DNA from: Thermoproteota archaeon
GTDB taxonomy: Archaea > Thermoproteota > Methanomethylicia > Methanomethylicales > Methanomethylicaceae
DNA: 64,000 bases
Assembly: GCA_029887795.1 (NCBI GenBank)
Contig: JARXPE010000003.1
Location: 28,600-92,599 of the forward strand
Direction: 5' to 3'
Numbering within the stretch: the stretch's first letter is position 1; the number at the start of each line of letters is the position of its first letter. Positions 18,043 through 48,059 of this stretch are shown one piece after another. The position numbers were made by a program, and so were the translations under genes. The notes beneath the pieces were generated by a model. The model saw nothing but the letters and a program-made list of their open reading frames with translations, did not search any database and was not told where the DNA came from.

Positions 18043-18044
18043 AA

Positions 18045-18821: not shown

Positions 18822-18832
18822 GAGGAATTGTA

Positions 18833-23255: not shown

Positions 23256-24851
23256 TTCCGCGATCTCCTCTGGGGAGAAGGAGTTCACGACTTCACATAC
23301 GGGGCCCCTCATTGCTATCTTCCCGTCTCTGAGCAGTAGCGCTTCGTCACAGGTATTCATGACAAACCCCATATCGTGCGAGACTATTAAAAAAGTCTGC
23401 CGGAGCTCGTGCCTTGCATTCTTTATTGATTTGGAAACATCCTGCTGCGTTATTGGATCCATTGTGCCGGTAGGCTCGTCTAATATTACTAGGATCGGCT
23501 CTCTTATTAGGACTTGGGCAAGCGCGACCCTATGCCTCTCGCCCTCGCTCAACTCATCAGGGTACTTATTCAAAATAGGCTCTATCAGACTTTCTTGGAA
23601 ACCAGCCGCTCTCAAGACCATGGCTGCCTTGAATTTGGCAAATTCGTCTGGCAATTCAAGCCCGATGGCATCAGTAAGGTTCTCTTGCACAGTCCTGTGT
23701 GGATAAAGCGAGTACTCTTGGTGAAGCAAACCGATGTATGGCGTCGCTCTGCCGCGCCCCATAGGCCCTGGTTGTAACATGTCCACCCATTCATCACCTA
23801 TCCTCAGCCAGACCCTGCCAGATGTCGGTTCCGTAAGACCTGCAATGATCCTCGAAAGCGTCGTCTTCCCTGCCCCACTCATCCCTACAATGCCAAATAT
23901 CTGCCCCTCCCTAACCTCAAAGGAGACGTCATCTAGCGCTCTAACAACCCCTTTGTCTATGGAGAAGTAATGCTTCTTCAGCCCCTCTACCCTGAGTATT
24001 GTATCTCCCGCCTCTGCGGGCACCTCTTTTGATATGGTTTCTGCCTCTGATAGGAACTCCCTCACGATTTCCTTCGGGTCTCCTATGACCTTCACACTTC
24101 CGTTCTCTAACAGTATTGCCCTCTCACTCAAAGCTTCTACTGCCTCGGGCAGGTGTGATGTGACCAGCATGGTTATGTTTTTACCCTTGACCTCTTCGTT
24201 CAATATCCTGTATACCATCCTTGCACTCAGCGGATCGAGCGTCCCCGTGGGTTCGTCTGCCAGCAACAGTATGGGTCTTATTGCCAACTGCCTGCCTAGT
24301 ACGACCCTCTGCTTCTCACCACCACTGAGATCCCTCGCCGCATGGAGTAGCCTATGTTCCAGGCCCATCCTCTTGGCAAGCTCGAGCGCCTTGCGCCCAA
24401 CATCGGCATTCTCGAGTTCAGCTTTCTCTAACGCCTCAACAAAATTCTCGTACACGGTGAGGCTGCCGTAAAGAGCAAAGGTTCTTTGAAACATTATTGC
24501 TATCCTATTTTTAATGTCTTTGGCTGACTCCCTATCCTCCCAGAAGTCTACCTCAATAAGTTCCATCTTTCCACAACATCTAGGACAAACCTTCCCTGCC
24601 CTGCTAGGCCCCTCAACGAAGCCACATTCCTTGCATGATGCTACTCGGTATATCACTTTACCTGCCGTGGGAGCATATTCTCCAATCCCTTTAAGCATTG
24701 AGAGAAGCACACTCTTACCAGAACCGCTCTTCCCAAGAATCCCGACTCTTTCGCCTTCGCGAATTACTAGTGACACATCCTTGAGAACGTAATGCCCGTT
24801 AAACTTTTTGGAAACGCCATCTACGATGATCAATGCCTCCCTCATCGTCAT
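23223..24851 (-). CDS. atwA: MCR system component A2 (AtwA-like): soluble tandem ABC ATPase with a Zn-ribbon insert
   Basis: Two full ABC cassettes (GKSGSGKS/LSGGEKQRV/LLLADEPT and GMSGAGKTT/LSEGERHRVALAQVL/ILDEPTG) with no transmembrane domain. CKECG...CPRCCG insert in cassette 1. Next to ycaO-tfuA. Confidence 0.7.
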   Translation of the reverse strand: MTMREALIIVDGVSKKFNGHYVLKDVSLVIREGERVGILGKSGSGKSVLLSMLKGIGEYAPTAGKVIYRVASCKECGFVEGPSRAGKVCPRCCGKMELIEVDFWEDRESAKDIKNRIAIMFQRTFALYGSLTVYENFVEALEKAELENADVGRKALELAKRMGLEHRLLHAARDLSGGEKQRVVLGRQLAIRPILLLADEPTGTLDPLSARMVYRILNEEVKGKNITMLVTSHLPEAVEALSERAILLENGSVKVIGDPKEIVREFLSEAETISKEVPAEAGDTILRVEGLKKHYFSIDKGVVRALDDVSFEVREGQIFGIVGMSGAGKTTLSRIIAGLTEPTSGRVWLRIGDEWVDMLQPGPMGRGRATPYIGLLHQEYSLYPHRTVQENLTDAIGLELPDEFAKFKAAMVLRAAGFQESLIEPILNKYPDELSEGERHRVALAQVLIREPILVILDEPTGTMDPITQQDVSKSIKNARHELRQTFLIVSHDMGFVMNTCDEALLLRDGKIAMRGPVCEVVNSFSPEEIAELSQSEDRLPR

Positions 24852-24892
24852 GCACCAAAGAACACGATTATTAATGAGATGTGATATTTAAG

Positions 24893-25552
24893 TCATACAC
24901 TCCTATTGATTGTCGTCAGTTCTCTGATCTTCTTTAAAACTTCAATCGCATCAATCCGCTTTTGATCGACTCTCTCTCTTTTCAACAATTCTAGAATGAA
25001 CTTTGCCCTTTCTCTGCCTAATTTGTCTATGGCATTCTGAATTATCCTACTGTAATTTCTGAGGTGAAAGGGGGTCTCCTTAGCACTCTCTATTATGATC
25101 TCTCCGTCCGCCTTACTGATCATGCCTCTTGATATCAGTAGCTCCAAAGTAGCTCTTATATTGACCAAAGGCTCGGAGAGTGGTTGATATGTGTTTGGAT
25201 GGAATACAACCGCCACTTCGTCATCAGCGCTAATAACACCTTGTTTATACCATCTGTAAATCTTCCCGACTCCGATCATGCCGTAGAGATCCAACTCGCA
25301 AGCCCTCAGAGCTCCTATACTAGATCCGCCGACCACCTTTACTCCCTTTTTAAGGGCATAAAGTATCTCACGATGCGAAACTGCTGTTTTCTGGTAGAAG
25401 ACGCCATCCACAAGCCCTATTATCTCGAACCCCTCATCAACAGCTCCCGCCACATCTCCCCTCCCAGCAGGTGGCCTGTACTCAACATCGTCCAAAATTT
25501 TTTCCGCCTCTTCTACAGGCAGACTTGGTCCTAAAAACACAACAACTTTCAT
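24893..25552 (-). CDS. tfuA: TfuA-like protein (partner of YcaO for McrA thioglycine formation)
   Basis: MKVVVFLGPSLPVEEAE...PPAGRGDV...GSSIGALRA is the TfuA signature. Start moved to the ATG at 25552 (GAAGGT ribosome-binding site), 25 nt after the ycaO stop; the track start at 25618 overlaps ycaO. Confidence 0.8.
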   Translation of the reverse strand: MKVVVFLGPSLPVEEAEKILDDVEYRPPAGRGDVAGAVDEGFEIIGLVDGVFYQKTAVSHREILYALKKGVKVVGGSSIGALRACELDLYGMIGVGKIYRWYKQGVISADDEVAVVFHPNTYQPLSEPLVNIRATLELLISRGMISKADGEIIIESAKETPFHLRNYSRIIQNAIDKLGRERAKFILELLKRERVDQKRIDAIEVLKKIRELTTINRSV

Positions 25553-25577
25553 AACCTTCTTCACACTTTCGATTTTT

Positions 25578-26783
25578 TCAACATTGACTTTTCTTGATCT
25601 TTTGGAGCGCCCTAGCACCTATTCTGTCTTTGTCCAGTGCATAAACCTCTAAACCTGGGACTATGACCCGCACGGCGGGAATGTTGACTTCATTTCTCGT
25701 CAAATCCACAATTATGACCTCGTTCAACCCCGCCTTTTTAAGCTTATTTATGATGTGGTTTATGTCCTCCAAAACATCATCACTATCATAGCCTTCAAGT
25801 TCGCTTATGCTTACCCGATCACCGGAACCCTCAAACCACTTCTTATTCAACCTCTTCATGCGCTCATATCCTATCCTTCTCGCAAAAACTGCCTTGTAGG
25901 TGTCCTCCCTAGTCCCATGAATCGTTGTAAGCCTGCTCTGGGCAGCCTCAGTCAGCGCCCTAACCAGGGCGATCTCTGGCACAAGGTGCGTCCCAACTCC
26001 AAGCGAAAGAAGCGCTGGATCTTTAGTCATCTCATCATCTATCGCAACCGATATTGTGGGTATCCCTATGTCTGATGTTATGTCTTTTATATAGACTTGC
26101 ACCGAAGCCTCCCTGAATCTTCTTATAAGTTCCTCTGCCAAGTCACAACCCTCGACCAACAAATCTCTACCCTTAGTAACTCCCAACTCAAATAGAGACC
26201 AAGCATCCCTCTCTATGACCTCCAAGAGCCCATGCAGAATGGCTTCCTCTATCTCATTCCCTACTGCCAATCCATTGGTATTGGTTCTGAAGAGCTGGTT
26301 TTCCCCCCTGTAGGGATGGAATACTGCCTCTGCTGGAACTAGGACTGCTTTCCCATGAGTCAGCGAGTGCCCATGTACCCACTCAAGATTTTCACTATGA
26401 GAATAGCGCCTTAGTTTAGGAAGATTCAGGGCAAATGGATCGAGCACGCAGTATGACTCGGATAGTGATTCATAACTGCCTTTTATTATTCCAATTTCTC
26501 TTGGCTCTCCTGAGAACCTTTCTATTCCCTCCATTATCGCCGAGATCTTTGCCTCCTCGGGAACATGACCCTTACCGGTGTATACTGTTATCGCACCTTC
26601 TGCAGCAAGGGGTCGCATTGCCGTGAAAACTGGTATCCCTATCCTGTCCAGTCCTGTTATGTCCGCCACTCTAGTTATTCCCGCCTTACTGTAAACTTTT
26701 TCTAGCAGCTCTAAAGTTTCCATCAGAGGCTTAGCTCGATGGGTGCCCTCTTTGTGACGCTTTTTTATGGAACGAAGTATCAT
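25578..26783 (-). CDS. ycaO: YcaO-domain protein (methanogenesis marker 1; McrA glycine thioamidation)
   Basis: ITRVADITGLDRIGIPVF and downstream ATP-binding YcaO blocks; 401 aa; directly upstream of tfuA. Confidence 0.85.
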   Translation of the reverse strand: MILRSIKKRHKEGTHRAKPLMETLELLEKVYSKAGITRVADITGLDRIGIPVFTAMRPLAAEGAITVYTGKGHVPEEAKISAIMEGIERFSGEPREIGIIKGSYESLSESYCVLDPFALNLPKLRRYSHSENLEWVHGHSLTHGKAVLVPAEAVFHPYRGENQLFRTNTNGLAVGNEIEEAILHGLLEVIERDAWSLFELGVTKGRDLLVEGCDLAEELIRRFREASVQVYIKDITSDIGIPTISVAIDDEMTKDPALLSLGVGTHLVPEIALVRALTEAAQSRLTTIHGTREDTYKAVFARRIGYERMKRLNKKWFEGSGDRVSISELEGYDSDDVLEDINHIINKLKKAGLNEVIIVDLTRNEVNIPAVRVIVPGLEVYALDKDRIGARALQKIKKSQC

Positions 26784-26892
26784 GAAATCACGCCCATCGA
26801 CATTTTTGCCTCTAATTGTATTTTTATAGGATTACCATCCGTATCAATATTAGTCCCATGACTACAAAATCATTTGCGAATGATCAGCGGGA

Positions 26893-28149
26893 TCATCTTC
26901 CTTCTTCTTCAAGTTCCTTCATACCGGAGACCATAACTGCCACACCCACTGCACCTATTAGGTTCGGTCTTTCCGGAACGATCACATCGACACTCAAAAT
27001 CTCTGACATGGCCTTAACGAGCCCTTTTATGAGCGCTGTGGAGCCGACCTGCACAATCGGGTACCTGATGTCTATCTCCTGAAGCTGCTGTTCGAAGACC
27101 TGCTCCGCGACGCTGTGACACGCCGCCGCGGCAACATCCTCGACCTTAGCCCCGCTAGCAAGACCCGCGACCAGATCTTGTAGTCCAAATACTATGCAAT
27201 AGGCATTCATGGGGACTTTTCTGTAATCACCCTTCATTGCAAGATCTCCGAACTCTTCAAGAGATACTCCCAGTCTCTTTGCGCTCGTCTCTATAAATCT
27301 TCCGGACGCCCCTGCACAGACTCCTCCCACCGTAAAGCTATCCGGTATACTGTCATAGAGGGTGACTGCTTTGTTGTCCATCCCTCCTATGTCTATTACA
27401 GTAGCATCTCCCTTCTGCCTATCGCAGAGGTATAGTGCCCCCTTTGAGCAAGTGGAGACCTCCTCCATCGCAAGCTTGGCCTTATACGCCTCCTTTAGAA
27501 TCATTCTGCCATAACCTGTTACACCTATAGCCTCCAAACTTTCCAGGCTGACCTTTGCTTCTTTAAGTGCCATATTGAGTGCTAATTGCCCGCTCTCAAA
27601 TACACTCGTTGTCGGGATCCACCCTGAACCGATGATCTCGTCGTCCTTCATTATGACCGCCTTTGTTGTCGTAGACCCTGAGTCTATCCCGGCAGTCAGC
27701 CCCTCCTGTTTTGTCCTGGCGAATAGCGGTTTCTTTCCGATTATACTGACGAGGGCCTCCATCCTCAGCAGCAGAGCGCCCGCCTTGGTCCTCTCCGTGA
27801 ATGAGTAAGTCACAACAGGGATCTTTGTTTTGCTCTGAATGTATCTCCTGATAATACTTCGGGTAAGTGCGCCCTCCGCGCATTTGAAACATGTAGCTAT
27901 GAATACCCCGTCAGCCTCAACCCTTCCTTCCACGACCGCTTTTGCCCTTGCCATCATCACCTTTAGACCTGGACTTGCTACATGAAATCCAAGCTCATCC
28001 TCAATTGATCTTATCTCAGCTAGGTCGACCTCTGGGATAAAGATCTTGCCGCCAACTATTTCGGCAGCTTTCTCAATCTCATTTTGTATGCCACTATATT
28101 CCGTTCCACAGGATATCTGCGCTATCCTGATCTTTCTCGCCATCTTCAT
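26893..28149 (-). CDS. BadF/BadG/BcrA/BcrD-type ATPase (CoA-substrate-specific enzyme activase family) with an N-terminal roughly 140-aa extension; candidate methanogenesis marker 15
   Basis: [14 protein letters not shown] phosphate-1 motif and [10 protein letters not shown] phosphate-2 motif of the ASKHA/BcrAD family. Confidence 0.55.
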
Positions 28150-36083: not shown

Positions 36084-36587
36084 TTAGCTAAGGCTCACTT
36101 TAGTCACAGTGGGTATTGTCAAGAGCTTTGAGACAACTTCTCCTGGTATTTTCCTCTCAGTTATTATCAGCAATTTAGGATCAGGATTCAGATCTGGATC
36201 CTCTGCCAAAATCTGTCTAATACTAACCCCTGCCTCGGCTATGTGGCTTGTTGCTTTTGCTATCACCCCAACTGCGTCTGGACGCGCCCTGATCTCAACA
36301 ACACTGTAGCCCAATTCCGGCGCCACATCTTTCAAAAAACTGCCTGCAGGCCTCAACCCAGAAAAAATCCTCTTCATCCTGGCGTCGCTCAAGATGTCCT
36401 TAACAGCCTCCCTGACAACTCTCCTGTCGACCTTGACCGCCTTGGCTATGCTGGTATCTGCTATCTCAACGTTGCCACAGACAACTTTACCTTTTTCATT
36501 AATGCTAAAACCTAGCTCAACCATCAGTCTAGCCACCTTGAGCTTCGCTGGTGCACCAGAGAAGAATTTCTCTATCTCTTTCCACAT
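36084..36587 (-). CDS. ACT-domain putative regulator (COG2150-like)
   Basis: N-terminal helical region plus C-terminal ACT-like beta-alpha-beta-beta-alpha-beta segment (VVEIRARPDAVGVIAKATSHIAEAGVSI). Start tentatively at internal M7 behind AGGGA; the track start is 36605. Confidence 0.45.
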   Translation of the reverse strand: MWKEIEKFFSGAPAKLKVARLMVELGFSINEKGKVVCGNVEIADTSIAKAVKVDRRVVREAVKDILSDARMKRIFSGLRPAGSFLKDVAPELGYSVVEIRARPDAVGVIAKATSHIAEAGVSIRQILAEDPDLNPDPKLLIITERKIPGEVVSKLLTIPTVTKVSLS

Positions 36588-36713
36588 ACTAATTTCCCTG
36601 TACAATTATATGCAAAAACGCTTATATATGGTTATTCTAAACAAATCATTCCCAAATGTCTCAACCTTCTAAACGGAATCAAGACTGGTATCCACAAATT
36701 ATTACTCTTGAAT

Positions 36714-37268
36714 TTACTCTTGATCTCCACCCACACCAACAACTATCGTCCCGATATTGGGATCGTCCTCAGAGACTCCAAACTTCTTCTTCAAATAAAG
36801 ATCTGCAGGGGGAGACGGGCTTCCTACAACTATTCCCAAACCTGCTAACTCAGGTATTTGAAGGGGGAGCATGATTAAGCTGATCTTGTCAATCTTCTCT
36901 TTTATCAGACGCATCTTGTCTTTGTAGAATACAAGGTTTCCCATAACAATATTGCCCTCATTTTTTAGCTTTTCCAACTCCCCCTCATCATAGACGTCCT
37001 CACCAATGGTTTCCTCATCGCAGACTATCTTTACGAGCGACGTCTTTGGCCATCTGAGACTTGCGTTGGTTATACAGGCATAAACGGCTTTCTTGCGAAG
37101 GGCCTCTCTGACACCCAAATTTATGCCTTTGCATAGTCCCATTAAGACCTTTCCCTCAGCCTCCCTCTCTAGCCTTTCGATCTCAGCCCGGTCCTCTTGG
37201 CTTAAGAGTGTAGCCTTTATGATTCCCTTCAGTCCCATCAATTTTTCCAGAACATTACCTTCTGACAT
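36714..37268 (-). CDS. Uncharacterised protein; last gene of the mmp/A2/RACo operon
   Basis: 184 aa; overlaps the 3' end of the RACo-like gene by 14 nt, which suggests cotranscription. Confidence 0.4.
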   Translation of the reverse strand: MSEGNVLEKLMGLKGIIKATLLSQEDRAEIERLEREAEGKVLMGLCKGINLGVREALRKKAVYACITNASLRWPKTSLVKIVCDEETIGEDVYDEGELEKLKNEGNIVMGNLVFYKDKMRLIKEKIDKISLIMLPLQIPELAGLGIVVGSPSPPADLYLKKKFGVSEDDPNIGTIVVGVGGDQE

Positions 37269-39156
37269 ATCTCCTCACGACCCTTGGTGCCTTAACATTG
37301 GCTACTACCTCAGGAAAATCTTCCAGTTTACTATTGGGCATGTACATGGCATTAACGTATTCCTCCTCAAAAATTGGTTCTGCTGCCAGCTCTACATACT
37401 TAACCGCCTTCGCGATAGCCCCTGCCTCACACCTCATCTCTACTGATTTGAGGCACATCCTCGCACCAGATCCAGCTGTATTCCCCAAAAATGAGATCTT
37501 GGATATTGGCAGCTCCGGTATCATCCCTATCGTTCTGGCATTCTCGGGATCTATGTAATTCCCAAAAGCGCCAGCTATTATTATCCCCGATAGGTCTTCT
37601 CTCCTGAAACCACTCTTTCTCATGAGCGTCATGTACCCTGCATACATCGCAGCTTTTGCCTTCTGAATCTCCCTAATGTCCTCCTGAGTTATTACAATGT
37701 CCTCTTTTCCGGATGCTGTATCCTCTTTAAACACCAAGACAAACTCCTTTCCGTCTGCCCCGTCCCTGATCCTCTTATGATCTTGAAGCACGATCTTTCC
37801 TGACATATCAATTACTCCTCTTTTGAGCATCTCCGCGACCGCGTCTATTATGCCCGAACCACAAATGCCTCTGGCTCTCTCTCCGTCTATAGTATTGTAC
37901 TCCACCTCAAAATCCTCTCCAATCTTGACTTTTTCTATGGCGCCGCTGGCGGCTCTCATTCCGCATTTGATGTGTGCCCCTTCAAATGCTGGACCTGACG
38001 CGGTCGAGCATGACCATAGCCCCTCCTTACATCCCAATACTACCTCGGTATTTGTTCCTACATCCATTAGCAGCGTCAACCTCTCCTTCTCATGTATTCT
38101 AGACGCTAAAATATCCGCTATCGCATCAGCCCCGACAAAACCCGCAACGTTTGGGAGCGTATGAATATTGCCCGCCGGGTTTATCCTAATGCCCAAATCC
38201 CTAGCTCTGACATTGTAAGCATTCCCCAAAACTGGGGGGTAAGGTGAAAATCCGAGTGACCTGACATTAAGCCCCAAGAAGAGGTGATGCATCGCTGTAT
38301 TTCCCACAGCCACAAGCTCGTAGAGGTCTTCTCTCCTGATACCTGTTTCCTCAAGCCCTCTATCTATGAGTGAATTTATGCCGTCGATTATTGCTTTTTG
38401 AATTTCTCTAAGGTTTTCATCAGACTGGGAGGCGTATCCTATCCTTGATATGACATCTTCTCCATACCTTATCTGCGGATTCATTATGCCATCTGCGAAT
38501 ATGATCCCTCCATCCAATAAGTCCACTATGAAGACGGCAAGCTTGGTTGTACCTATATCCACTGCTACCCCATAGAGTTCTTTGGTTCTGTCCCCCAGCT
38601 GAATATTCACAATCTCATGATTATTCAAGATTGTAAAAGTAACCTTCCAATCACCCTCCCTTAGTATCTTTGGCATCTTCTTAATGGTATCATAATCTAT
38701 TAGAACTGGATCAAACCCCATTCCTGCCAGGACCTGGGCGATCCTGACATCGTCTCCCTTAGGATCTTGAAGAGAGGGTGGCAAAACTTCCACATAGACT
38801 TTTTTGACGTTCGGCCTCAGAGTGATTGCAGGCTCCTTGCCCATTATCACGAGCCTCTGTCTCCCGACCCTGCTTTGGTCTGGTACTTGGACCACCATGT
38901 CCTCCTCAACAATTAACTGGCACGCCAGGCGGTAGCCTTTTCTTATTCTCTCATCACCGACCCTTTTCTTCTCTTGTTCAGTAGGGGGCGGGGCTCTTCC
39001 CTCAAGTATTTCAACTAGACATTTACCGCAGAAACCCTTTCCGCCGCAGATGTTTGCCAAATCGACTCCTGCCCTCAGTGCCGCAAACATGACAGTGGAT
39101 CCTGCGGGGACTGAAACCCTCTTCCCCTCAGGCAAGAACTTCACTTCAAACTCCAT
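37255..39156 (-). CDS. RACo/RamA-like ATP-dependent reductive activase (N-terminal 2Fe-2S ferredoxin domain plus ASKHA ATPase/DUF4445)
   Basis: N-terminal plant-type ferredoxin Cys pattern (CGGKGFCGKC...C). Central VAVDIGTTK and DVGTNTE ASKHA phosphate motifs. Start ATG overlaps the stop of the upstream A2-like gene (atggagtttga). Confidence 0.65.
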   Translation of the reverse strand: MEFEVKFLPEGKRVSVPAGSTVMFAALRAGVDLANICGGKGFCGKCLVEILEGRAPPPTEQEKKRVGDERIRKGYRLACQLIVEEDMVVQVPDQSRVGRQRLVIMGKEPAITLRPNVKKVYVEVLPPSLQDPKGDDVRIAQVLAGMGFDPVLIDYDTIKKMPKILREGDWKVTFTILNNHEIVNIQLGDRTKELYGVAVDIGTTKLAVFIVDLLDGGIIFADGIMNPQIRYGEDVISRIGYASQSDENLREIQKAIIDGINSLIDRGLEETGIRREDLYELVAVGNTAMHHLFLGLNVRSLGFSPYPPVLGNAYNVRARDLGIRINPAGNIHTLPNVAGFVGADAIADILASRIHEKERLTLLMDVGTNTEVVLGCKEGLWSCSTASGPAFEGAHIKCGMRAASGAIEKVKIGEDFEVEYNTIDGERARGICGSGIIDAVAEMLKRGVIDMSGKIVLQDHKRIRDGADGKEFVLVFKEDTASGKEDIVITQEDIREIQKAKAAMYAGYMTLMRKSGFRREDLSGIIIAGAFGNYIDPENARTIGMIPELPISKISFLGNTAGSGARMCLKSVEMRCEAGAIAKAVKYVELAAEPIFEEEYVNAMYMPNSKLEDFPEVVANVKAPRVVRRYVRR

Positions 39157-40828
39157 GCTTCGCCTCACCAAAATATCTGTTTATAACATCTTTTGGCTCG
39201 CCATCCATTATAACCTTCCCGTCCTTGATCAACACGCACCTATCAGCAACTTCCTCTACAAATTCTAATTGATGGCTGACCAGGATTATGGCTGGCTTGA
39301 ACCATATCTTTATCCTCTTGAGGAGGTTAGCTACCCTCCTAAGGGTCAAAGGGTCTAGATCCCCAAAGGGCTCGTCCAAAATCAAGACTTTGGGATTCGA
39401 TACCAAAGAGAGTGCCAAGGCGACCCTTATCTTCTCCCCACCAGACAATTGATAGGTTTTCTTTGTAAGTACCCCTTCGGTCATTCCGAACCATTCAAGG
39501 ATTTTTAAAGCCAACTCCTTTGCCTTCTCCGGATCTTTTTCTTTGAAGATCTCCTTTAAGAGGCTCCTGTCAAGCCCTGCCTCTTTGAGTTTTATCTCCA
39601 TCTCCCCTTCTGGCAGTTCTGCAAGCCTTCCCAGAACGTCAACCACCGCATCACTTATCCCCTTTCTCTCAGCCCTGCGAACCGCCTCCTCAAGCGACCT
39701 ATAGTCCTTTATTCCTATGAGCGCTGCAAAGAGTTCAAGTACGCTTGACCAGTAAGGGAGGTCGAACTCTTGGTGGAGAATTCCTATCCTCCGCCTCGCC
39801 CTGAGGCTCTTTCTCCCAAACTTCCCCAGAGGGACCCATTCTCCCCTGTAAAAGATCTTAACATCCCCTGCGTCTGGCAACTCTAAACCCGCCAACATCC
39901 TCATTATGACAGTCTTGCCAGCGCCAGAAGGTCCTACAATGCCCGTTATTTCCCCAGTTCTGAAATTTAGAGTGGTCTCCTTTAACTCAAAGACCTTACC
40001 ATACGGAACTAGTTTGTAAACCTTCCTCGTTTTTTCAATTTTGAGGACATCCTCCCCAAGGATCTTTACCTTACTAAGAGGCTCTTCAAGTCTGGAAAGA
40101 AAGCTCTCCACCACGGTTCTGGTTTCCCCCTCCATTGAAACCCTTCCCTTCTCAAGGAGTATGGCCCTGTCTGCCAAGGACATGTGAATTGAAGGATTAT
40201 GTGAGACGAAGAGGACGCTCATTCCGTACTCGTCCCTTGCTCTCTTCAAAGCATCAACCAATGCTGCCCTACTCTGGAAATCTGTCATAGTCCCAGGTTC
40301 GTCCAAGAGCAGGAGTCTTGGCCTTCTAGCGATCTGTCTAGCCACAATCAACCTTTGCTTTTCACCACCGCTGAGAACTCCTGACCAGAGATCTGCTCTA
40401 CTTTCCAGTCCCACAACCTTCAAGACTTCCATCGCCCTTGCCCTGTACTCCTCATACTCTCCTTCGTCTTGAGGAATTACCTCATCCCCGATATCATAAT
40501 ACACAAGCGCCCTCACCACGTTGTCCACAACGGAATCTGGCCACAGACCGAAGGTTCTCTGGAGCTGTATTGCAGTCCTTCTTTGTAGTTCCAGAAAAGA
40601 CTCTTTCGGGGAGTCCGGATTAACTTCGAGGTCTTCAAAGACTATTCTTCCGCCGTCGAAACCCTCAACACCCCTAAGAATTCTCAATAACGTTGTTTTG
40701 CCCGCCCCGCTCTCACCTAGGATTCCAACAATCTCGCCCCTGTCGAGTCGGAAAGAGACGGAGTCGAGCACCTTAAAGCCAGAAAAACTCTTGATAACAC
40801 CATCACACAAAAGCAACAATCGTATCAC
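39146..40828 (-). CDS. Second AtwA-like soluble tandem ABC ATPase (component A2 paralogue) with a long helical insert in cassette 2
   Basis: GESGAGKTT/LSGGEKQRLIVARQI/LLLDEPG and GPSGAGKT/LSGGEKIRVALALSL/ILDEPFG; no transmembrane domain. Roughly 80-aa insert (KDYRSLEEAVRRAERKG...KILEWFGM) between the Q-loop and the signature motif. Confidence 0.6.
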   Translation of the reverse strand: MIRLLLLCDGVIKSFSGFKVLDSVSFRLDRGEIVGILGESGAGKTTLLRILRGVEGFDGGRIVFEDLEVNPDSPKESFLELQRRTAIQLQRTFGLWPDSVVDNVVRALVYYDIGDEVIPQDEGEYEEYRARAMEVLKVVGLESRADLWSGVLSGGEKQRLIVARQIARRPRLLLLDEPGTMTDFQSRAALVDALKRARDEYGMSVLFVSHNPSIHMSLADRAILLEKGRVSMEGETRTVVESFLSRLEEPLSKVKILGEDVLKIEKTRKVYKLVPYGKVFELKETTLNFRTGEITGIVGPSGAGKTVIMRMLAGLELPDAGDVKIFYRGEWVPLGKFGRKSLRARRRIGILHQEFDLPYWSSVLELFAALIGIKDYRSLEEAVRRAERKGISDAVVDVLGRLAELPEGEMEIKLKEAGLDRSLLKEIFKEKDPEKAKELALKILEWFGMTEGVLTKKTYQLSGGEKIRVALALSLVSNPKVLILDEPFGDLDPLTLRRVANLLKRIKIWFKPAIILVSHQLEFVEEVADRCVLIKDGKVIMDGEPKDVINRYFGEAKHGV

Positions 40829-40900
40829 CGTAATGAGGATTTACTGAAACTACACTATCTCAAAACTATCTTCTCTATAAATTATTTCACCGTTTGCGCC

Positions 40901-41812
40901 TCACGAGAAATAGGACTCTGGCAAGATCCTAACAAGTATGTAATCCCTCATTTGAGATCTTGTTATACGAGATAGTTCATCGAGCCTTTTTCCCTCAACG
41001 ACCACAGAGGCAACTTTCTCCTTGTACTCGTCGTACGGCAACTTAATCCTGACGCCGTCGACCTTCAATGTTACTGGATTTGGTGAGAGGGCGTCCAAAA
41101 CTTCCGGAACCTGCCTCTCCACCTCGTTCTTTACAAGCGCTGGCTCTATTATTAATGGATCCAAATCCATTTCCCTCCGCCTTCCCTCGATCAGTTTTCC
41201 TGCTAGCTCTGAGACCCTTCTCAACTTCTCTATCATGTCTACAGTTCTTGCCCTCTCTGGATATCTCCCTATTCCTCCAACATAACCACTCGCTCCCTCC
41301 ACCTCCAGTTCGGGTGGTCCGCCAGTCACTATCACTGGTACGGATAACTCCTTGAACAACTTTGGCTTAAATCTCCTCAAACAGTGCTCAAAGTTCCCGA
41401 GCGTAAAAACTGCGAGATCATGTTCTTCAATAAGCTGCCTCTCCTGTACTGATGTATGCACTATCTTCTGACCTACTCCCCTAGCCAGTCCCATTATGTT
41501 TGTCTTTGCACCGTGCCTCCTCAAGTTCTCAGCTATATCACAGGCAGGGTGTGGAAGGTGGTGCCTGGATAATGTAGGGGCCACAACTACAACCTCGGTT
41601 CCTATGAGTGGGGCATCTCTGAGCTTGCCCTTTACCTCTTGGACTATTTCTTGCAACCTTCCAACTTCTTCCTCTGGGATCGCCAAATTCATTATTAGGT
41701 CCAGTCCGATCACAGTCTTTTGTATCACAAAGCCTCCAACATCTTCTACAAACTCCAGTAAAAGTTCATGCTTATACATGCCGCCCTCAAAGATGACATA
41801 TTTTAACATCAC
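40901..41812 (-). CDS. Candidate methanogenesis marker protein 7
   Basis: 303 aa; size, operon position (with marker 17-, marker 3- and A2-like genes) and composition fit Mmp7. Assignment by context and memory. Confidence 0.45.
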   Translation of the reverse strand: MMLKYVIFEGGMYKHELLLEFVEDVGGFVIQKTVIGLDLIMNLAIPEEEVGRLQEIVQEVKGKLRDAPLIGTEVVVVAPTLSRHHLPHPACDIAENLRRHGAKTNIMGLARGVGQKIVHTSVQERQLIEEHDLAVFTLGNFEHCLRRFKPKLFKELSVPVIVTGGPPELEVEGASGYVGGIGRYPERARTVDMIEKLRRVSELAGKLIEGRRREMDLDPLIIEPALVKNEVERQVPEVLDALSPNPVTLKVDGVRIKLPYDEYKEKVASVVVEGKRLDELSRITRSQMRDYILVRILPESYFS

Positions 41813-42360
41813 TCGTCCACCGCCAAATCAGCAGCCATTTTCTTCCAATCCTCTCTGATGGGGTCCTCCGCAGCCATAACAGTCAGAAGATCGCCTTCCT
41901 TAATCACGTGCCGAACCCTGAACCCTTCGGGTATCACTCTATTCACGAGTTCGTTCACCTTATCCGAAACACTTACCCTCTCCTTCTTTATTTTGAGCTC
42001 CTTCAAACTCTCTGGCTCTGCGCCTCTCACCACGATCTCTGTTCTTCCAGATTGCTCGACCTTGTCTCTTCCATAAGTGCTCCACAGACTTCTAAGCGCA
42101 TCTCCAAGGTCAATCTCATCCTCTAATATGACCCTCACGCTACCAGATCTTGCCTCTATCCTTGCTAGCTCCCCTATCTTATTCTTGATCTCGCGCTCCC
42201 TATATTTGACCTTCATTACAAAGAGCGGGAACTCGGGCTTTATCAGGACTGCAATCCCTGTTACACTATTCCCTAGCGCTAGATCCTCCACGTTTCTCTC
42301 AACAATATGTCTATACATCTCTCCCCCCGTGTTGTCTGAAGAGACCACGACTATCTTCAT
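41809..42360 (-). CDS. Candidate methanogenesis marker protein 17
   Basis: 183 aa; 4-nt overlap with the downstream gene; context-based assignment. Confidence 0.4.
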   Translation of the reverse strand: MKIVVVSSDNTGGEMYRHIVERNVEDLALGNSVTGIAVLIKPEFPLFVMKVKYREREIKNKIGELARIEARSGSVRVILEDEIDLGDALRSLWSTYGRDKVEQSGRTEIVVRGAEPESLKELKIKKERVSVSDKVNELVNRVIPEGFRVRHVIKEGDLLTVMAAEDPIREDWKKMAADLAVDE

Positions 42361-42361
42361 C

Positions 42362-42781
42362 TTAGCTCCCCCCTGCCTCCTCCACTATCTTCTTAAGCTT
42401 CGAGACGTCCAACCTCGTTTTCGGCTCTGTTTCCTTTATCTCCAATACACCCTCTGCCTCAAGCGCCTTTGATACATTCTTCAGCACATTCCTCTCGGCA
42501 CCCAGCATAAAATACCCTGGTCTTGGTCCTCCTCCCCTCTTCGCCCTACATATCCTCTCGTCCCCAATCCTGTAGCCCCTCACCTTGAAGAATATTCTGT
42601 TAGGGTCCATTTCCCTCAATGCTTTCATTACCTTCTCCAACTCCGCCTCTTCTCCCTCTATTAAAACTCCATAGCAGGTCTCCTTGTAATTAACTCCGCC
42701 CAGCGCTGCCACTTTTTCCATAAGCATAGAAGGTGTTAGATTCGAGTCTGGCGATAACATCACCACAAAAGTCTTTATCAT
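42362..42781 (-). CDS. Small conserved protein, candidate methanogenesis marker 5/6 family
   Basis: 139 aa; sits between the marker 3-like and marker 17-like genes; translationally coupled. Confidence 0.35.
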   Translation of the reverse strand: MIKTFVVMLSPDSNLTPSMLMEKVAALGGVNYKETCYGVLIEGEEAELEKVMKALREMDPNRIFFKVRGYRIGDERICRAKRGGGPRPGYFMLGAERNVLKNVSKALEAEGVLEIKETEPKTRLDVSKLKKIVEEAGGS

Positions 42782-44301
42782 GCCCCCTCCTCCATAATGT
42801 ATACCTTTCTCCCTTCCCTCAGACCATTCAATATGGCGAGATTTTCCAGAACTCTGCCGACAATGTTGGTTCCATCAAAGCTTTCTGCCGTCGGACCAAA
42901 CTTGTCACTCTCCATTAGTCTGATACCGACCATTCCGGCGAACTTCTTAACAGAGTTTGTGACCCCTATTATTCCGGAACCGACTTTACCCTTGGGAAGA
43001 TTCTCGGGCATAAGGCCTTTTCCCAAACTCTCATCACCTTTAAAGAGAACAACTTCCTTCGTTGAAAAGAATACCTCTAGACGCCCAACGCGTCTAAGAT
43101 CTAAGCCAGTGACTCTCCTGAAGTATTTCACAGAGATCGGAGCATATCTCTCATTTAACTGAATCTTCAAGATCTGATCACGAGGAAGTCCTGTACATCT
43201 GACAACCCCTTGCTTGTATATCTCTACCGTGGTAGCTGGTGAGTGGTCCACTACGATCCCATCATCCCCTAAATAGCCCTCCCTGACATGGATGATTCCT
43301 GCCCTCTCTAACGCCCCTTTTACCTCTCCTTGGGTTCTCCCAAGAAGATCTAACCTCTCTGGAATTAGAACCGTTTGTATCATATCTCCTTCCTTGGCAA
43401 CATCAGCAAGCTCAATTCCACTGACGACTCGCCCAGCTATCACGTGATCTTTTGAGATTGCCGACTTCTGAAGATATATGTAAACCAACCCTGCATTATT
43501 ACCGGAGCTTCTGACAGAAACGACCCCCCTTTCTCTACTCCCCACATCCTCGCTTTTTATGGAGAGTAGTCTGATTTTATCATGCGCAATAAAGCGGCTA
43601 GTCTTTCTGGCGACTGTAAAACCTTCGCTCAGCGCGTTATATACATGTTCCACACAAATAGGAGACTGAGGATTTAGTTGTATCTCCATTTTTGTAAATA
43701 TCATGTCGCCCTCGTTTAACTTGTAATCATTTTTGACCCGTACTAGCGATCCAGGATCAGACTTTTTCTCCCAGACTGGTAAAATCTTATTAATTTTATC
43801 TCCAATCCTGAAAGCCTCAAGCAAGTGCCTGCCATAAACTACGCGCCCCAGGACTCTGCAGCCCTTCGGTGGAAAGTAAAGCGCGCTATGGGTCCGCTTA
43901 CTGAATACAAGGTGCGAGCTCTCATTGCTGGAACCTGAGAGGCTCACAGTAATTTCATATCTTCGCAACTCGACCTCTTCTTTGGAAGGCAGGAATTCTG
44001 TTTTGGTGGGTCCAAATACCACAGCATCGATAGTTGCCCACCTGACACCACATCCTTCAAAGCTCTTGTAAGCCTGCTTCCACTTTTCTAACTCATCATC
44101 GCACTCCCACCTTAGTATCATCCTGCCTCGCGTTGTATGAACCTCATAAAGGTTTGTGGGGATGCGCTCTACATCTATTTTTCTTTTGACGGCAACTATG
44201 TAGCCTTCTTTGACTTTAATGCCCGATCTCTCCAAAAAATCCCCCAAGCTTTCATCTTTTCGCGCTTCCATTTCGACGCCATCAACTACTACTCTCAACA
44301 C
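42778..44301 (-). CDS. Candidate methanogenesis marker protein 3 (UPF0288-like), first gene of the activation operon
   Basis: 507 aa; size and position fit Mmp3; transcribed divergently from mcrDC. Confidence 0.5.
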   Translation of the reverse strand: MLRVVVDGVEMEARKDESLGDFLERSGIKVKEGYIVAVKRKIDVERIPTNLYEVHTTRGRMILRWECDDELEKWKQAYKSFEGCGVRWATIDAVVFGPTKTEFLPSKEEVELRRYEITVSLSGSSNESSHLVFSKRTHSALYFPPKGCRVLGRVVYGRHLLEAFRIGDKINKILPVWEKKSDPGSLVRVKNDYKLNEGDMIFTKMEIQLNPQSPICVEHVYNALSEGFTVARKTSRFIAHDKIRLLSIKSEDVGSRERGVVSVRSSGNNAGLVYIYLQKSAISKDHVIAGRVVSGIELADVAKEGDMIQTVLIPERLDLLGRTQGEVKGALERAGIIHVREGYLGDDGIVVDHSPATTVEIYKQGVVRCTGLPRDQILKIQLNERYAPISVKYFRRVTGLDLRRVGRLEVFFSTKEVVLFKGDESLGKGLMPENLPKGKVGSGIIGVTNSVKKFAGMVGIRLMESDKFGPTAESFDGTNIVGRVLENLAILNGLREGRKVYIMEEGA

Positions 44302-44580: not shown

Positions 44581-44898
44581 TTGGAAACAAAAGACAAGCC
44601 TGAAATTGAGATCCTGCCTAGGCGACTTATGCCAAGCAAAAAAGCCGAGGATTTTGCTGCACTGTTGAAGGACACTGGAATGGTCTCGGAGGTCCTATTC
44701 CAGAGGCACAACTACTCCGGAGGAGGGTATATGGTAGGAAGGTTCATTCTCTTAATATCCGAAAATTCGCCAGAAACTGTTATTGGTAAGATCAAACCAT
44801 TGTGCGAACAGGTTATGCCGTATGGCTATGACATCAGAGTAGGTCGCTTCACCAAACCTAGACCTACTGTAAAAGATTACTTGGCTGGAAGGGTGTAA
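44581..44898 (+). CDS. mcrD: McrD-like protein (short form, 105 aa)
   Basis: EIEILPRRLMPS...AEDFAALL and C-terminal MPYGYDIRVGRFTKPRPTVKDYLAGR match conserved McrD blocks; TTG start; lacks the usual C-terminal roughly 40 aa. Confidence 0.55.
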   Translation: METKDKPEIEILPRRLMPSKKAEDFAALLKDTGMVSEVLFQRHNYSGGGYMVGRFILLISENSPETVIGKIKPLCEQVMPYGYDIRVGRFTKPRPTVKDYLAGRV

Positions 44899-44917
44899 AG
44901 GTTTAGGGGCGATTTGC

Positions 44918-45559
44918 TTGGACGAAGCTATTGGAAGGAGCTCTCAGATCGTGGATTGTCGGGAAGCTCAGGGCATAGGGGAGGGTGGCGGACTCGCCCA
45001 ACGTGGGACGATTTCGGAATCGGAACGCTTCGACGTGGTCGCGGTTGCAATGTCTCCTTCTAAAAGACATATCACAAAACCCATCTGTGAAATAACTTAC
45101 GGTCTAAGGGAACAGGGCATCAGAACGAGCGTCTTAGTTCTCGAGTCTGGATCAGGGGTGCCTTCCGACTCGCCCTATGGAGGCGCACCAGGTGGAACAA
45201 TGGCTGGAATCAACGAAAAAGAGATACTCCAGATAAGAAGATACAAACTCGCCCTATTCCACTTGGGCGGCATTGGGGGACATGTTGTCTATAAAGCTAA
45301 AACCTTTCTGCGATATGTCGACATCCCCACCATTATAGTCTGTGAGGCACCTGTAGACTATGAGGATTTTGCCAAGGTTGGGATCATCACCCGACTTGTA
45401 CGCCCGCCTCCCGATAAGGTCGAATGCCTAGGAACGATTGTCGATATTGTGACTGGCGTTGTGAGGGGTGTCAGCGCACCGCGCGACAAACTCAACGAAA
45501 TAGTGACAAAAGTAAAATTTTGGCTTAGCAAATTTGATGAGGAACATAAAAAAAGGTGA
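44918..45559 (+). CDS. mcrC: Methyl-coenzyme M reductase operon protein C
   Basis: VDCREAQGIGEGGGLAQRGT, VAVAMSPSKRHITKPICEITYGLRE, LFHLGGIGGHVVYKAKTFLR, IIVCEAPVDYEDFAKVGI are canonical McrC blocks. Confidence 0.85.
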   Translation: MDEAIGRSSQIVDCREAQGIGEGGGLAQRGTISESERFDVVAVAMSPSKRHITKPICEITYGLREQGIRTSVLVLESGSGVPSDSPYGGAPGGTMAGINEKEILQIRRYKLALFHLGGIGGHVVYKAKTFLRYVDIPTIIVCEAPVDYEDFAKVGIITRLVRPPPDKVECLGTIVDIVTGVVRGVSAPRDKLNEIVTKVKFWLSKFDEEHKKR

Positions 45560-45566
45560 AATTAAA

Positions 45567-46043
45567 TTGGCAAAGATATTCATATTTCCGCCCAACAGCC
45601 TGATTCTCTTTGACTTAGTGAAAAGGGAGGGTCATACCCCCTTGGGGTTGGGGGAAGAGGTTGCAAAGAATGTAAACAGACCCGAGATCGATTCTCCACC
45701 AATGAACATAACTCCTGACTTCCCTAGGAGAGGTCTAAAATACGCTGCCATAGAGGTCCCTTCAGGCGTTAGGGGGAGGCTGGCGCTGATCGGTCCTCTT
45801 GTTGAGGAGGCAGATGCCGCCATTATTGTGGAAGAACCAGAGGCACTTTTCGGGTGTGCCAGTTGTGGAAGAACAAACGAATTTCTAATTTACCTAATAA
45901 AACAGCGCAACATACCTTTCATTAAAGTTCCATATCCTTCTACAGAAGAAGATGCGAGAATCATGGTTTCAAAAATAAGAAAATTTCTCTCATCACTCAA
46001 TGAAATCCAGAAGACAAATACAACGATGGCGACGAAGACATAG
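45567..46043 (+). CDS. Conserved small protein cotranscribed with mcrDC (uncharacterised)
   Basis: TTG start 8 nt after a GGTGA ribosome-binding site that lies inside the mcrC 3' end; 158 aa; CASCG motif. Confidence 0.4.
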   Translation: MAKIFIFPPNSLILFDLVKREGHTPLGLGEEVAKNVNRPEIDSPPMNITPDFPRRGLKYAAIEVPSGVRGRLALIGPLVEEADAAIIVEEPEALFGCASCGRTNEFLIYLIKQRNIPFIKVPYPSTEEDARIMVSKIRKFLSSLNEIQKTNTTMATKT

Positions 46044-46129
46044 CAAAAACTTAGCCCATGATTTGACGAGGAAATCATTCGCCATTTGCTCTTATTCAAT
46101 ACCGAAAGAAAAATAACTTTTATTTAGGC

Positions 46130-46339
46130 TTACAGGATTTCAACCACTTTTTTCCTTGACTTAAATCCTGAAACTATCCTAATCTGAGATGGTTGCACCT
46201 TGAAGTGTTTGGCTAGCTTATTAATCAACTCTATATTTGCCCTTCCTCCCTCTGGTCTCTCTTTCAATCCTACAAAAATTGTATCGCCTTCCACCTTCAC
46301 AAAATCTTCTCCCAATTTTACCTCTACATCGTACCTCAT
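46130..46339 (-). CDS. DUF167/YggU-like small protein
   Basis: 69 aa; ...VKVEGDTIFVGLKERPEGGRAN.ELI..LAK.FKV......IVSG..SR.K.V.I fits the DUF167 pattern. Confidence 0.55.
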   Translation of the reverse strand: MRYDVEVKLGEDFVKVEGDTIFVGLKERPEGGRANIELINKLAKHFKVQPSQIRIVSGFKSRKKVVEIL

Positions 46340-46747
46340 AAAACCATCCTCTACTGTTTTCCTCTGGCAGGTTAATTAAAACCTTCTAAATATGCTCTTT
46401 TAAGGTTATTATTGTAAAGGCCTGAAAAATTATAAAACTCGCAATAACAAAAAGACCGCTCATAAATTTCAATCATGTTATTAAAATTTGCATAATTTAA
46501 TTTAACAAATAATGCATATCAGTATTTGGATCGATTCTCATGAAAAATGAATGAGTGATTTTTATCCAAAGTTTCGAGTCGCATCAGTCCAAGCGATCCT
46601 ATACCCCCAAAAAGAGAGAAAACAATATAGAAGTTGGAAGAACAGGGGCTAATGCCAAGAAAATGAGTTCATCAAAGCAACAGAAAAGGAGTTCAAAAAA
46701 GCTAAAGTAATTCTTGCAGGCTTTTTTGATATTTCAGTACATGGCAT

Positions 46748-46996
46748 TCATTCATAATACTTTAATGTCTCCTTCAATTTTTCAAAAATAAACGCTTTTG
46801 CCTTTATCAACTCCTCCCTATCTCCTATAAGCACCCAAGCCATCGGAATGGCGTCCCCATCAACGGGTGATGGTGCTTGTATAGGCTTTTCTGCGAGTTC
46901 AACTTTAAATCTATGTGTTGCCTCGGCTATGATTGAGTAGGGAGTCCCTGGAGGTATGGGCATAAAAAAGCCCTTCTTTTTATCTTCATTTTCCAT
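46748..46996 (-). CDS. Hypothetical protein
   Basis: 82-aa ORF; no motif recognised. Confidence 0.3.
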   Translation of the reverse strand: MENEDKKKGFFMPIPPGTPYSIIAEATHRFKVELAEKPIQAPSPVDGDAIPMAWVLIGDREELIKAKAFIFEKLKETLKYYE

Positions 46997-47054
46997 AATA
47001 ATCCCTATCCAATGATTTTAATTGCTTATGTTTTTCGCAATATTTTATTACACT

Positions 47055-48059
47055 CTAATTTATGCTTATGTTAAATACGATCTCTGAAATTCCTATTCCG
47101 TACTCAGCTATTCTTTTTGTACTATCAAATATGACCGCCAAAGTTCCGAGAACCTCCTTTGAAGAACTATGACCGAATTTTTCTAAAACTTCCTCTATTG
47201 ACTTAACCGTAGATCTGGCGTCGTGTATAACCCTGTTTGCATCCAAAAGATTGTTGCTCTTAAGGCAATTTAATGACTTTACAAAAATAGTTCCAGTTTT
47301 TTCCAACAGTTCTTTTATGACCAAAGTAGAATTATTATCAATTTTATCAATCAAATCCAATAAAATTGTAGAGATCTTGCACACATGATCGGCAACCCTC
47401 TCTACATGTCTAAATATTATCCTATATTCCAAAACCTCTCTGCCCATTTTAATGTCATAATCGAGTGCCGAAAGCTTATCCTCTATGATGCTTGAAAGCC
47501 ATCTGCTTCCCATGAAGTACAGTTTATCTATGTCATCATCCCTCTCAACTACATCTAATAGAATATTTTTATTTTTTGAAGCAAGAGCCTTACAAACATC
47601 CAAAATCATATTGTGAACCATGGAGGTCATTCTCATCAAAATCTTGTTTATTGGGTACTCATAAGGTCTAAGGATTACTTGTATAGTCATGCTGTTAATA
47701 GATTCGTCTACTATCTCGCCACCAGCCATTTTGTTCTTTATAATTTTTCTCAACTTATCTCTGACTTCAAACTCTGGCCCCACTTCTAAAAGATCTAACT
47801 TTATAACATCATAACCTGCGATGTATGCTGCCATTATCTTTCTAATGAGAAATCCTGCATCGGTTTCTTTTTCCTTAATTAAAATCTCTCTTTCCTTTCT
47901 TTTTTCCGAATTGATTGTTGATATTCTAATATTTCCATCATCAAGTACTTGTACATCGACCTCTGACTTTGCTCCGAGACCTCTCGCCTTAACCCATTCC
48001 TTGGGGAGTGCGACAGTGAATGTGGAAGCTCCAACCCTTTGTAAACGCCTTACCACCAT
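47055..48059 (-). CDS. Phosphate uptake regulator, AbrB/SpoVT-like N-domain fused to two PhoU repeats (archaeal PhoU-type)
   Basis: N-terminal swapped-hairpin motif RLQRVGASTFTVALPKEWVKARGL; C-terminal PhoU-like helical repeats; divergent from pstS. Confidence 0.7.
   Translation of the reverse strand: MVVRRLQRVGASTFTVALPKEWVKARGLGAKSEVDVQVLDDGNIRISTINSEKRKEREILIKEKETDAGFLIRKIMAAYIAGYDVIKLDLLEVGPEFEVRDKLRKIIKNKMAGGEIVDESINSMTIQVILRPYEYPINKILMRMTSMVHNMILDVCKALASKNKNILLDVVERDDDIDKLYFMGSRWLSSIIEDKLSALDYDIKMGREVLEYRIIFRHVERVADHVCKISTILLDLIDKIDNNSTLVIKELLEKTGTIFVKSLNCLKSNNLLDANRVIHDARSTVKSIEEVLEKFGHSSSKEVLGTLAVIFDSTKRIAEYGIGISEIVFNISIN

Follow-up and report, generated by a model that had tools for sequence, protein, structure and literature searches.

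Two described kinds of ATP-dependent reductive activase of corrinoid proteins are the closest points of comparison for the gene analyzed here: RACo of Carboxydothermus hydrogenoformans (PDB 3ZYY, complex 4C1N) and RamA, known from Methanosarcina (TIGR04270). Activation of methyl-coenzyme M reductase (MCR), whereby Ni(II) is reduced to Ni(I), has been described for two systems, namely the McrC-Mmp7-Mmp17-Mmp3-A2 complex of Methanococcus maripaludis (PDB 9H1L/8S7V; PMC12176620) and the “MCR activation operon” of Methanosarcina acetivorans. A RACo-type protein is part of neither, and even with the 2025 structure of the activation complex (PMC12176620) it has not been settled where the low-potential electron for MCR activation comes from. 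Here, we describe a RACo-type reductive activase gene (37255–39156, minus strand) inside an MCR-activation operon, found in a stretch of 64,000 nucleotides from a Thermoproteota archaeon of the class Methanomethylicia (GCA_029887795.1, contig JARXPE010000003.1, positions 28,600 to 92,599), which we refer to as the window. On balance, we think it probable that this gene encodes an ATP-dependent corrinoid-protein reductive activase that is co-expressed with the genes for MCR activation.

The open reading frame (ORF) covers positions 37255–39171 of the minus strand and yields 638 amino acids from a TTG at 39171, or 633 from the ATG at 39156. A first-pass annotation, made by a model from the letters alone, had described the 633-residue product as a [2Fe-2S] ferredoxin domain combined with an ASKHA ATPase in the manner of RACo and RamA, and this description was borne out. 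The protein consists of an N-terminal [2Fe-2S] ferredoxin, a linker, a middle domain and an ASKHA ATPase, which match Pfam Fer2 (residues 14–88, E 1.9e-12), RACo_linker (9.2e-20), Raco_middle (1.3e-55) and RACo_C_ter (2.1e-96), all far above their gathering scores, as is typical of the RACo/COG3894 architecture. The same 4 domains make up Carboxydothermus RACo, which aligns with the window protein over the full length (3ZYY, 440 bits, residues 2–617 against 3–630). The cluster ligands C37, C43, C46 and C79 are conserved in all 38 RACo-type sequences that we compared, and the ASKHA motifs DIGTT, DxGTNxE, GPAFEG and GNT are invariant or nearly so, with no difference in ligands or motifs between copies in operons of methanogenesis marker protein (mmp) genes and copies in methyltransferase clusters. 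The 4 cysteines and the phosphate- and adenosine-binding motifs, including the GPAFEG loop, are those of Carboxydothermus RACo, although the Ser beside GPAFEG lies one position away from where RACo has Ser398. Unlike the Carboxydothermus gene, the window gene has no CODH/ACS or CoFeSP genes nearby (acs and CoFeSP genes were found neither in the 64-kb window nor in the corresponding operon loci of other Methanomethylicia), and it is instead preceded by a paralogue of component A2 and followed by a conserved partner gene of 184 amino acids. With RamA, the window protein has in common the Raco_middle domain and the ASKHA core, as well as its origin from a methyl-reducing methanogen that must keep its corrinoid proteins in the Co(I) state. 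However, RamA has no 2Fe-2S domain at its N-terminus and bears 4Fe-4S motifs at its C-terminus, whereas the window protein does have the N-terminal domain. In the profile hidden Markov model search that had been proposed as a check, the RACo Pfam domains are all present, but neither curated cut-off is reached, that of AcsV (NF040756, 533 bits against 800) no more than that of RamA (TIGR04270, 160 bits against 500, covering only profile positions 1–414 of 534). Judged by these profiles, it adds a new member to the RACo/COG3894 family, outside the 2 characterized subfamilies.

The gene lies in a string on the minus strand that runs from 44301 down to 36714 in the order mmp3, mmp6, mmp17, mmp7, A2-like, RACo-type and the gene of 184 amino acids, which we call small184. 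The first 4 products all exceed their curated NCBIfam cut-offs: Mmp3, encoded by the operon's first gene (42778–44301; TIGR03268, 485 bits against 234), Mmp6 (42362–42781; TIGR03272, 136 against 126), Mmp17 (41809–42360; TIGR03291, 123 against 67) and the McrC-like methanogenesis marker 7 (40901–41812; TIGR03274, 389 against 349). The A2-like gene (39146–40828) encodes an ABC ATPase with 2 nucleotide-binding domains (NBDs) and ends in the frame H-G-V-TGA, with the ATG of the RACo-type gene 11 nucleotides inside it; this junction reads ...aagcATGGAGTTTGAagtg, and the 11-nucleotide overlap itself (39146–39156, minus strand) is ATGGAGTTTGA. The overlap of start and stop noted in the first-pass annotation is thus present in the sequence. 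On its other side, the RACo-type gene overlaps small184 (36714–37268, minus strand), whose ATG lies 14 nucleotides inside the RACo reading frame. A divergent unit on the plus strand (44581–46043) consists of a short mcrD-like gene (44581–44898; TIGR03260, 44 bits, below the cut-off of 100), mcrC (44918–45559; TIGR03264, 288 bits) and mmp5 (45534–46043; TIGR03271, 209 bits). NCBIfam matches hence agree with the earlier picture of an operon with the marker 3, 17 and 7 genes beside a divergent mcrDC, a picture which had missed mmp6 and small184.

Compared with the characterized systems, the operon likewise encodes Mmp3, Mmp17 and Mmp7 of the M. maripaludis complex, plus Mmp6, and mcrC is encoded, together with mmp5, divergently from it. 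An A2-family ATPase occupies the position that A2 has in the M. acetivorans operon. In contrast to both systems, this ATPase is a paralogue without the zinc motif, and the true A2 is encoded 14 kb away. A literature search returned no paper describing this RACo-type gene in Methanomethylicia or tying RACo or RamA to MCR activation, and the supplements of PMC6783470 and of the Culexarchaeia preprint hold only COG3894/ramA entries. As read from the sequence, the trio of zinc-less A2 paralogue, RACo-type gene and small184 at the end of an MCR-activation operon is an arrangement that appears in no paper of the literature searched.

To see how far the arrangement extends, we compared 22 further Methanomethylicia loci (3 plus 2 context look-ups, and 17 species representatives that came from scanning GTDB genomes), with about 20 kb visible around each relative's gene. 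The closest homologues of the RACo-type protein (65–99% identity) are labelled Methanomethylicia or Verstraetearchaeota, and close homologues include those of Ca. Methanosuratincola verstraetei, from a closed 1.52-Mb record, and Ca. Methanomethylicus mesodigestus. The order mmp3-mmp6-mmp17-mmp7-A2-like-RACo on one strand recurs in 22 of the 22 loci as far as the contigs reach, as would be expected of genes whose co-transcription is conserved, and in most of them small184 and a TrpY-family regulator follow the RACo-type gene, with mcrD-mcrC-mmp5 divergent. The 11-nucleotide overlap between the A2-like and RACo-type genes was found at 17 of the 21 junctions that were scored, one of these 17 having an uncertain start call; the other 4 measure −8, +1, +1 and +50 nucleotides. 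Given the E-values of the RACo domains and the conservation in every further Methanomethylicia locus examined, chance can be excluded as an explanation.

The A2-like ATPase belongs to a family that extends well beyond this class. When aligned with the true A2 of the window, it lacks the CxxC...CxxC zinc insert and has about 55 extra residues in NBD2, while both domains, which match PF00005 in 2 stretches, retain intact Walker A, Walker B and LSGGE motifs. Its best family is component A2, yet it scores under the cut-off (TIGR03269, 333 bits against 517) and so is not assigned to A2; its best PDB match is the M. maripaludis A2 of 8S7V/9H1L (245 bits, in 3 pieces). The window therefore holds 2 A2-family ATPases, a canonical one (atwA, 23223–24851, minus strand; TIGR03269, 766 bits; zinc motif CKEC...CPRCC) near mcrBGA, ycaO and tfuA, and the motif-less one in the mmp operon. 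The zinc-binding motif is what sets A2 apart from related ABC ATPases, and many archaea encode an A2 homologue with 2 NBDs and without this motif, such as MA_3967 (bioRxiv 10.64898/2026.03.18.712670). The A2-like protein of the window is of this type, which is widespread in MCR-containing archaea. We had considered the A2-like gene as a duplicate specific to Methanomethylicia, and rejected this because its family is widespread in such archaea and is mentioned in the literature. Homologues with 42–50% identity occur in Nezhaarchaeota, Bathyarchaeota, Archaeoglobi, Methanobacteriaceae and Methanomicrobiales. The paralogue lies between mcrD and mcrBGA in a Nezhaarchaeota genome, between DUF2099 and DUF2114 genes on an Archaeoglobales contig, and among unrelated genes on a Methanobacteriaceae contig; in these 3 loci (the Nezhaarchaeota locus L006, together with L007 and L008), no RACo-type gene was found beside the A2 paralogue or the mmp genes. 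Unlike MA_3967-type genes elsewhere, the paralogue is therefore joined to a RACo-type gene only in Methanomethylicia among the lineages examined. The adjacency whose conservation was to be checked is thus kept in all 22 loci within the class, but is absent in the loci of these 3 outside lineages.

A neighbor-joining (distance-based) tree of 38 RACo-type proteins gives the main Methanomethylicia clade 100% bootstrap support. L003, a deep lineage whose mmp operon contains the RACo-type gene (with spacers of 50 and 38 nucleotides in place of the overlaps), pairs with L004 at 100% bootstrap and 81.5% identity, L028 joins this pair at 78%, and the main clade groups with all three at 70%; for L004 and L028, and for L030 discussed below, the taxonomic placement relies on the labels given by submitters, on synteny and on composition. 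No mmp genes occur in L004. Its RACo-type gene and a small184 homologue (41% identity, E 2e-41) lie directly upstream of an MtmB-family gene without an in-frame stop, with genes for a URO-D protein (MtaA/MtbA-like), pylSBCD and a corrinoid protein nearby. L028, a metagenome-assembled genome (MAG) labelled Verstraetearchaeota (GCA_003649085.1), has the order RACo-small184-TrpY-TIM-orf92-NadE-Mrr-ThiN, the same as the downstream side in the window; upstream of RACo lie genes for a zinc-ribbon protein, an acetyltransferase, Lon_C and a PAPS reductase, and within the locus of about 20 kb its RACo-type gene has no A2-like or mmp neighbor. Judging from its accession range, this MAG may be one of the Guaymas Basin set. 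In that set, mcrA was found only in Syntrophoarchaea, Methanomicrobia and one Thermoproteales group, and the MAGs labelled Verstraetearchaeota had none. More distant RACo-type genes in Bathyarchaeia (L026, 47% identity) and Hadarchaeota (L027, 44%) directly follow 2 MtmB-like genes and a B12-binding gene, and 2 URO-D genes and a B12-binding gene, respectively. A RACo-type gene hence adjoins methyltransferase genes in L004, L026 and L027, and does so neither in the window nor in the 22 operon loci. Its distribution is also not that of a gene present wherever MCR is and lost with it, as L006, L007 and L008 have no adjacent copy and L028 retains both RACo and small184. In addition, MAGs of the sister class Culexarchaeia carry 1–3 ramA genes each, yet 0 of 38 methanogenesis markers (Culexarchaeia preprint).

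The 14-nucleotide overlap of small184 with the RACo-type gene recurs in 13 of the 21 scored Methanomethylicia loci. A search of its family profile against PDB sequences and Pfam gave no match. A fold predicted from an alignment of representatives (the prediction from the single sequence had a pLDDT of 36) appears remotely nitroreductase-like, while Foldseek with the predicted model returned nothing below E 0.01. The nitroreductase/FMN-oxidoreductase superfamily includes the B12-linked BluB and CblC/MMACHC, to which small184 has no sequence-level similarity. In 3 species (L014, L015 and L017, at about 11896–12640), small184, the TrpY gene and a TrpB-like gene are all missing after RACo, and a convergent TIM-barrel gene comes directly next; small184 is therefore either dispensable at that position or encoded elsewhere.

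A further question is whether the operon gene is the only activase of its family in the lineage. A search with the corrinoid protein of L004, followed by inspection of contexts, led to loci (L030, L031) with the order URO-D, pylDCBS, mtmC, an mtmB split by pyrrolysine, and a protein of 542 amino acids with Raco_middle and RACo_C_ter domains and a C-terminal Fer4 region. This protein scores 669 bits with TIGR04270 (cut-off 500), which makes it a canonical RamA (L030, 12620–14248; L031, 11671–13299; both minus strand), and its identity to the window protein is no more than about 27%. Its exact sequence occurs in 4 NCBI MAGs under the name [quoted passage not shown] its cluster mates are labelled Ca. 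Methanosuratincola, on contigs of up to 1.49 Mb, and a cluster mate of the adjoining corrinoid protein is labelled Ca. Methanosuratincola petrocarbonis. By tetranucleotide composition, L030 and L034 are closest to the window-type loci (r 0.88–0.89), and the GC-rich RamA locus L038 is closest to Methanosuratincola-type loci. Separately, we observed that the GC content is about 46% in L030 and L031 but about 54% in L001, an operon locus of Methanosuratincola, and these RamA loci may represent an acquired island or a different genus. As the operon copy is present in every Methanomethylicia species examined, labels, contig sizes and composition make it very likely that RamA and the operon RACo occur together in one genome. 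With a canonical RamA beside mtmCB, the operon gene is then a second member of the family. Several COG3894 paralogues per genome are common in Methanosarcina. The same is usual among methylotrophic archaea (Culexarchaeia preprint supplement). We rejected the idea that the lineage has no corrinoid activase besides the window protein, which would then simply be its RamA, on account of the TIGR04270-positive gene in L030. This status as second member removes the RamA reading but gives no pointer to MCR. The first-pass annotation had offered, as its simpler alternative, a RamA for a corrinoid methyltransferase encoded elsewhere; a corrinoid activase does fit better, but not a RamA, given the score of 160 bits and the separate RamA beside mtmCB.

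Metagenome contigs supplied 2 further observations on this family. On a short one (L048, 23–3155), the gene directly after a RamA-type gene is of the RACo type, with a product 43% identical to the window protein, so that the 2 subfamilies can be neighbors. On 3 others, Methanomassiliicoccales-like and with a GC content of about 60% (L047, 6001–13566; L054 and L055, 6001–13570), pylSBCD-RamA-mtmC-mtmB is followed on the same strand by atwA (the true A2), mcrC and mmp3. The clustering of a corrinoid activase with MCR-activation genes is therefore seen independently in another methyl-reducing lineage.

We infer from these contexts what the activase may act on and why its gene would be co-transcribed with the mmp genes. 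In the proposed scheme, reduced ferredoxin or another donor would load the N-terminal [2Fe-2S] cluster, and the ASKHA domain would bind a corrinoid protein of the methyl-reducing pathway that is in its inactive Co(II) state. The most plausible substrate is MtaC or some other partner of a methyltransferase without pyrrolysine, and probably partners other than MtmC are served. ATP binding and hydrolysis would permit the uphill electron transfer from the cluster that takes the corrinoid from Co(II) to Co(I). RACo and the small184 protein would form a two-gene module, the latter possibly as a partner in electron input or cofactor handling. In Methanomethylicia the two genes are joined to the MCR-activation operon at its 3' end, following the A2 paralogue. 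A single transcript could thereby supply both ATP-driven repair systems, one returning methyltransferase corrinoids from Co(II) to Co(I) and the other returning MCR from Ni(II) to Ni(I).

Several lines of sequence evidence appear to fit this corrinoid reading better than its rivals. The protein has the architecture and motifs of the structurally characterized RACo; relatives in L004, L026 and L027 sit with methyltransferase genes; L028 keeps RACo with no mmp genes beside it, and the Culexarchaeia have ramA genes while methanogenesis markers are missing; the A2 paralogue occurs elsewhere without an adjacent RACo; the M. maripaludis complex works without one; and the Methanomassiliicoccales-like contigs offer a parallel case of RamA clustered with atwA. 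A number of observations weigh against it. No corrinoid protein or methyltransferase genes were found among the scanned ORFs of the 64-kb window, nor in any of the 22 further operon loci of about 20 kb. The protein falls in neither the AcsV nor the RamA subfamily, because it is below both curated cut-offs, and the canonical RamA beside mtmCB and the pyl genes means that at least that corrinoid protein does not require the operon copy. Throughout the class, at RACo identities as low as about 56%, the RACo-type gene stays next to the A2 paralogue, and together with the 11-nucleotide overlap this implies selection for co-expression with the MCR-activation genes. In another explanation, which we regard as unlikely, the RACo-type protein would serve the MCR activation complex as an ATP-coupled electron input specific to this lineage, either by itself or jointly with the A2 paralogue and the small184 protein; its mobile [2Fe-2S] domain would feed the cluster chain of McrC, Mmp7 and Mmp3, possibly besides a corrinoid role. 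The first-pass annotation had proposed such an electron donor for the reduction of Ni(II) to Ni(I) with adjacency as the sole basis, and we do not favor it, since the contexts of relatives argue against it. It does not fall, however, on a lack of conserved adjacency in relatives, which that annotation had named as a sign against it, as the adjacency to the A2 paralogue is conserved class-wide. The position inside the operon, with reading frames overlapping on both sides, speaks for it, as do the separate RamA that serves mtmCB, the lack of any role given to the RACo-type gene in the literature searched, and the fact that no physiological donor is known for the activation complex (PMC12176620). 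Set against this are the 81.5%-identical protein in the methyltransferase cluster of L004, the retention of RACo and small184 in L028 with no adjacent mmp or A2-like genes, and the A2 paralogue and mmp genes of Nezhaarchaeota, Methanobacteriaceae and Archaeoglobales with no adjacent RACo. The same window also encodes Mmp15, an HgdC/BcrA-type activase that is a universal candidate for ATP-coupled electron injection. Moreover, RACo recognizes its substrate through direct contact with an exposed corrinoid, while F430 is buried in MCR. Finally, the purified M. maripaludis complex of McrC, Mmp7, Mmp17, Mmp3 and A2 is active in vitro without a RACo-type protein (PMC12176620). That the 3 genes together form a lineage-specific, ATP-driven electron-input module, in which the scaffold of a corrinoid activase was recruited for the McrC/Mmp7/Mmp3 chain, strikes us as similarly doubtful.

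A corrinoid substrate that serves MCR maturation would account for the operon position in another way, if the protein reactivated the cobalamin of the B12-dependent radical SAM enzymes that modify McrA (Mmp10- or MgmA-type). This chemistry suits the RACo family, genes for MCR maturation (ycaO, tfuA, mmp15 and atwA) make the window an island, and a B12-binding radical SAM gene lies in the mcr neighborhood of the Nezhaarchaeota locus L006. Yet neither the window nor the operon loci contain a B12-dependent radical SAM gene, L028, which retains the RACo-type gene, and L004, where it lies among methyltransferase genes, point elsewhere, and to our knowledge these enzymes are not known to need RACo; we consider this explanation very improbable. 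The adjacency could also be a historical accident, in which the mmp block landed beside a pre-existing RACo-small184 pair and the overlap arose by drift, with no function. The synteny of L028, with the pair at the same position but no mmp block, and the 50- and 38-nucleotide spacers of L003 are in line with such a history. Nevertheless, the order is kept in 22 of 22 further loci and the 11-nucleotide overlap in 17 of 21, across several genera, and unselected adjacency rarely survives such a depth of divergence in archaea, which leaves an accident with a small share of our expectation. The reading of a corrinoid-protein activase co-expressed with the MCR-activation genes therefore remains the one that we prefer.

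The remainder of the window is an island of MCR genes as well. It includes mcrB, mcrG and mcrA (16642–20503, plus strand; mcrA with TIGR03256, 1005 bits), the canonical A2, and a maturation cluster adjoining atwA (22326–28149) that consists of an mmp2-like gene, tfuA, ycaO/mmp1 and mmp15. The mmp2-like gene is related to AIR synthases and scores 251 bits against a cut-off of 365; mmp15 (26893–28149, minus strand) encodes the BadF/BcrA/HgdC-type activase ATPase (TIGR03286, 649 bits against 456; TIGR00241 CoA_E_activ, 295 bits). No tRNA or Rfam matches were found in the window. Beyond small184 lies the TrpY-family regulator gene (36084–36605, minus strand; NF053754, 198.5 bits), whose upstream spacer of 108 nucleotides contains CATATATAAG, a TATA-like element of its own; this gene is probably a syntenic neighbor outside the operon. 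Within the operon, the 72-nucleotide spacer between mmp7 and the A2-like gene (40829–40900, minus strand) contains AAATAATTTATAGA, which resembles an archaeal TATA box. A spacer of this size (72–75 nucleotides) occurs only in the genus of the window, with 0–30 nucleotides in other genera, and judging from its sequence it may act as an internal promoter for the A2-like, RACo-type and small184 genes. The mcrD-like gene at 44581–44898 encodes 105 amino acids, against 109–120 in relatives, and matches only the C-terminal third of the McrD models. About 1 kb 3' of mmp5 (46044–47055) has no ORF of at least 120 amino acids and borders the part of the window with the lowest GC content (0.353 for 46001–48000), after which come a PhoU-like gene and a pst operon.

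The finding defines a RACo-type subfamily with a conserved partner of 184 amino acids, and ties the zinc-less A2 paralogue to MCR genes in TACK lineages. The class-wide joining of a RACo-type gene to an MCR-activation operon provides a concrete, testable candidate for the source of the electron in MCR activation, and Methanosuratincola petrocarbonis is now in pure culture. If the electron-donor module were real, it would be the first identified physiological donor for the activation of Ni(II) to Ni(I). If the corrinoid reading holds, methyl-reducing Thermoproteota would co-express the repair of 2 super-reduced cofactors, Co(I) and Ni(I).

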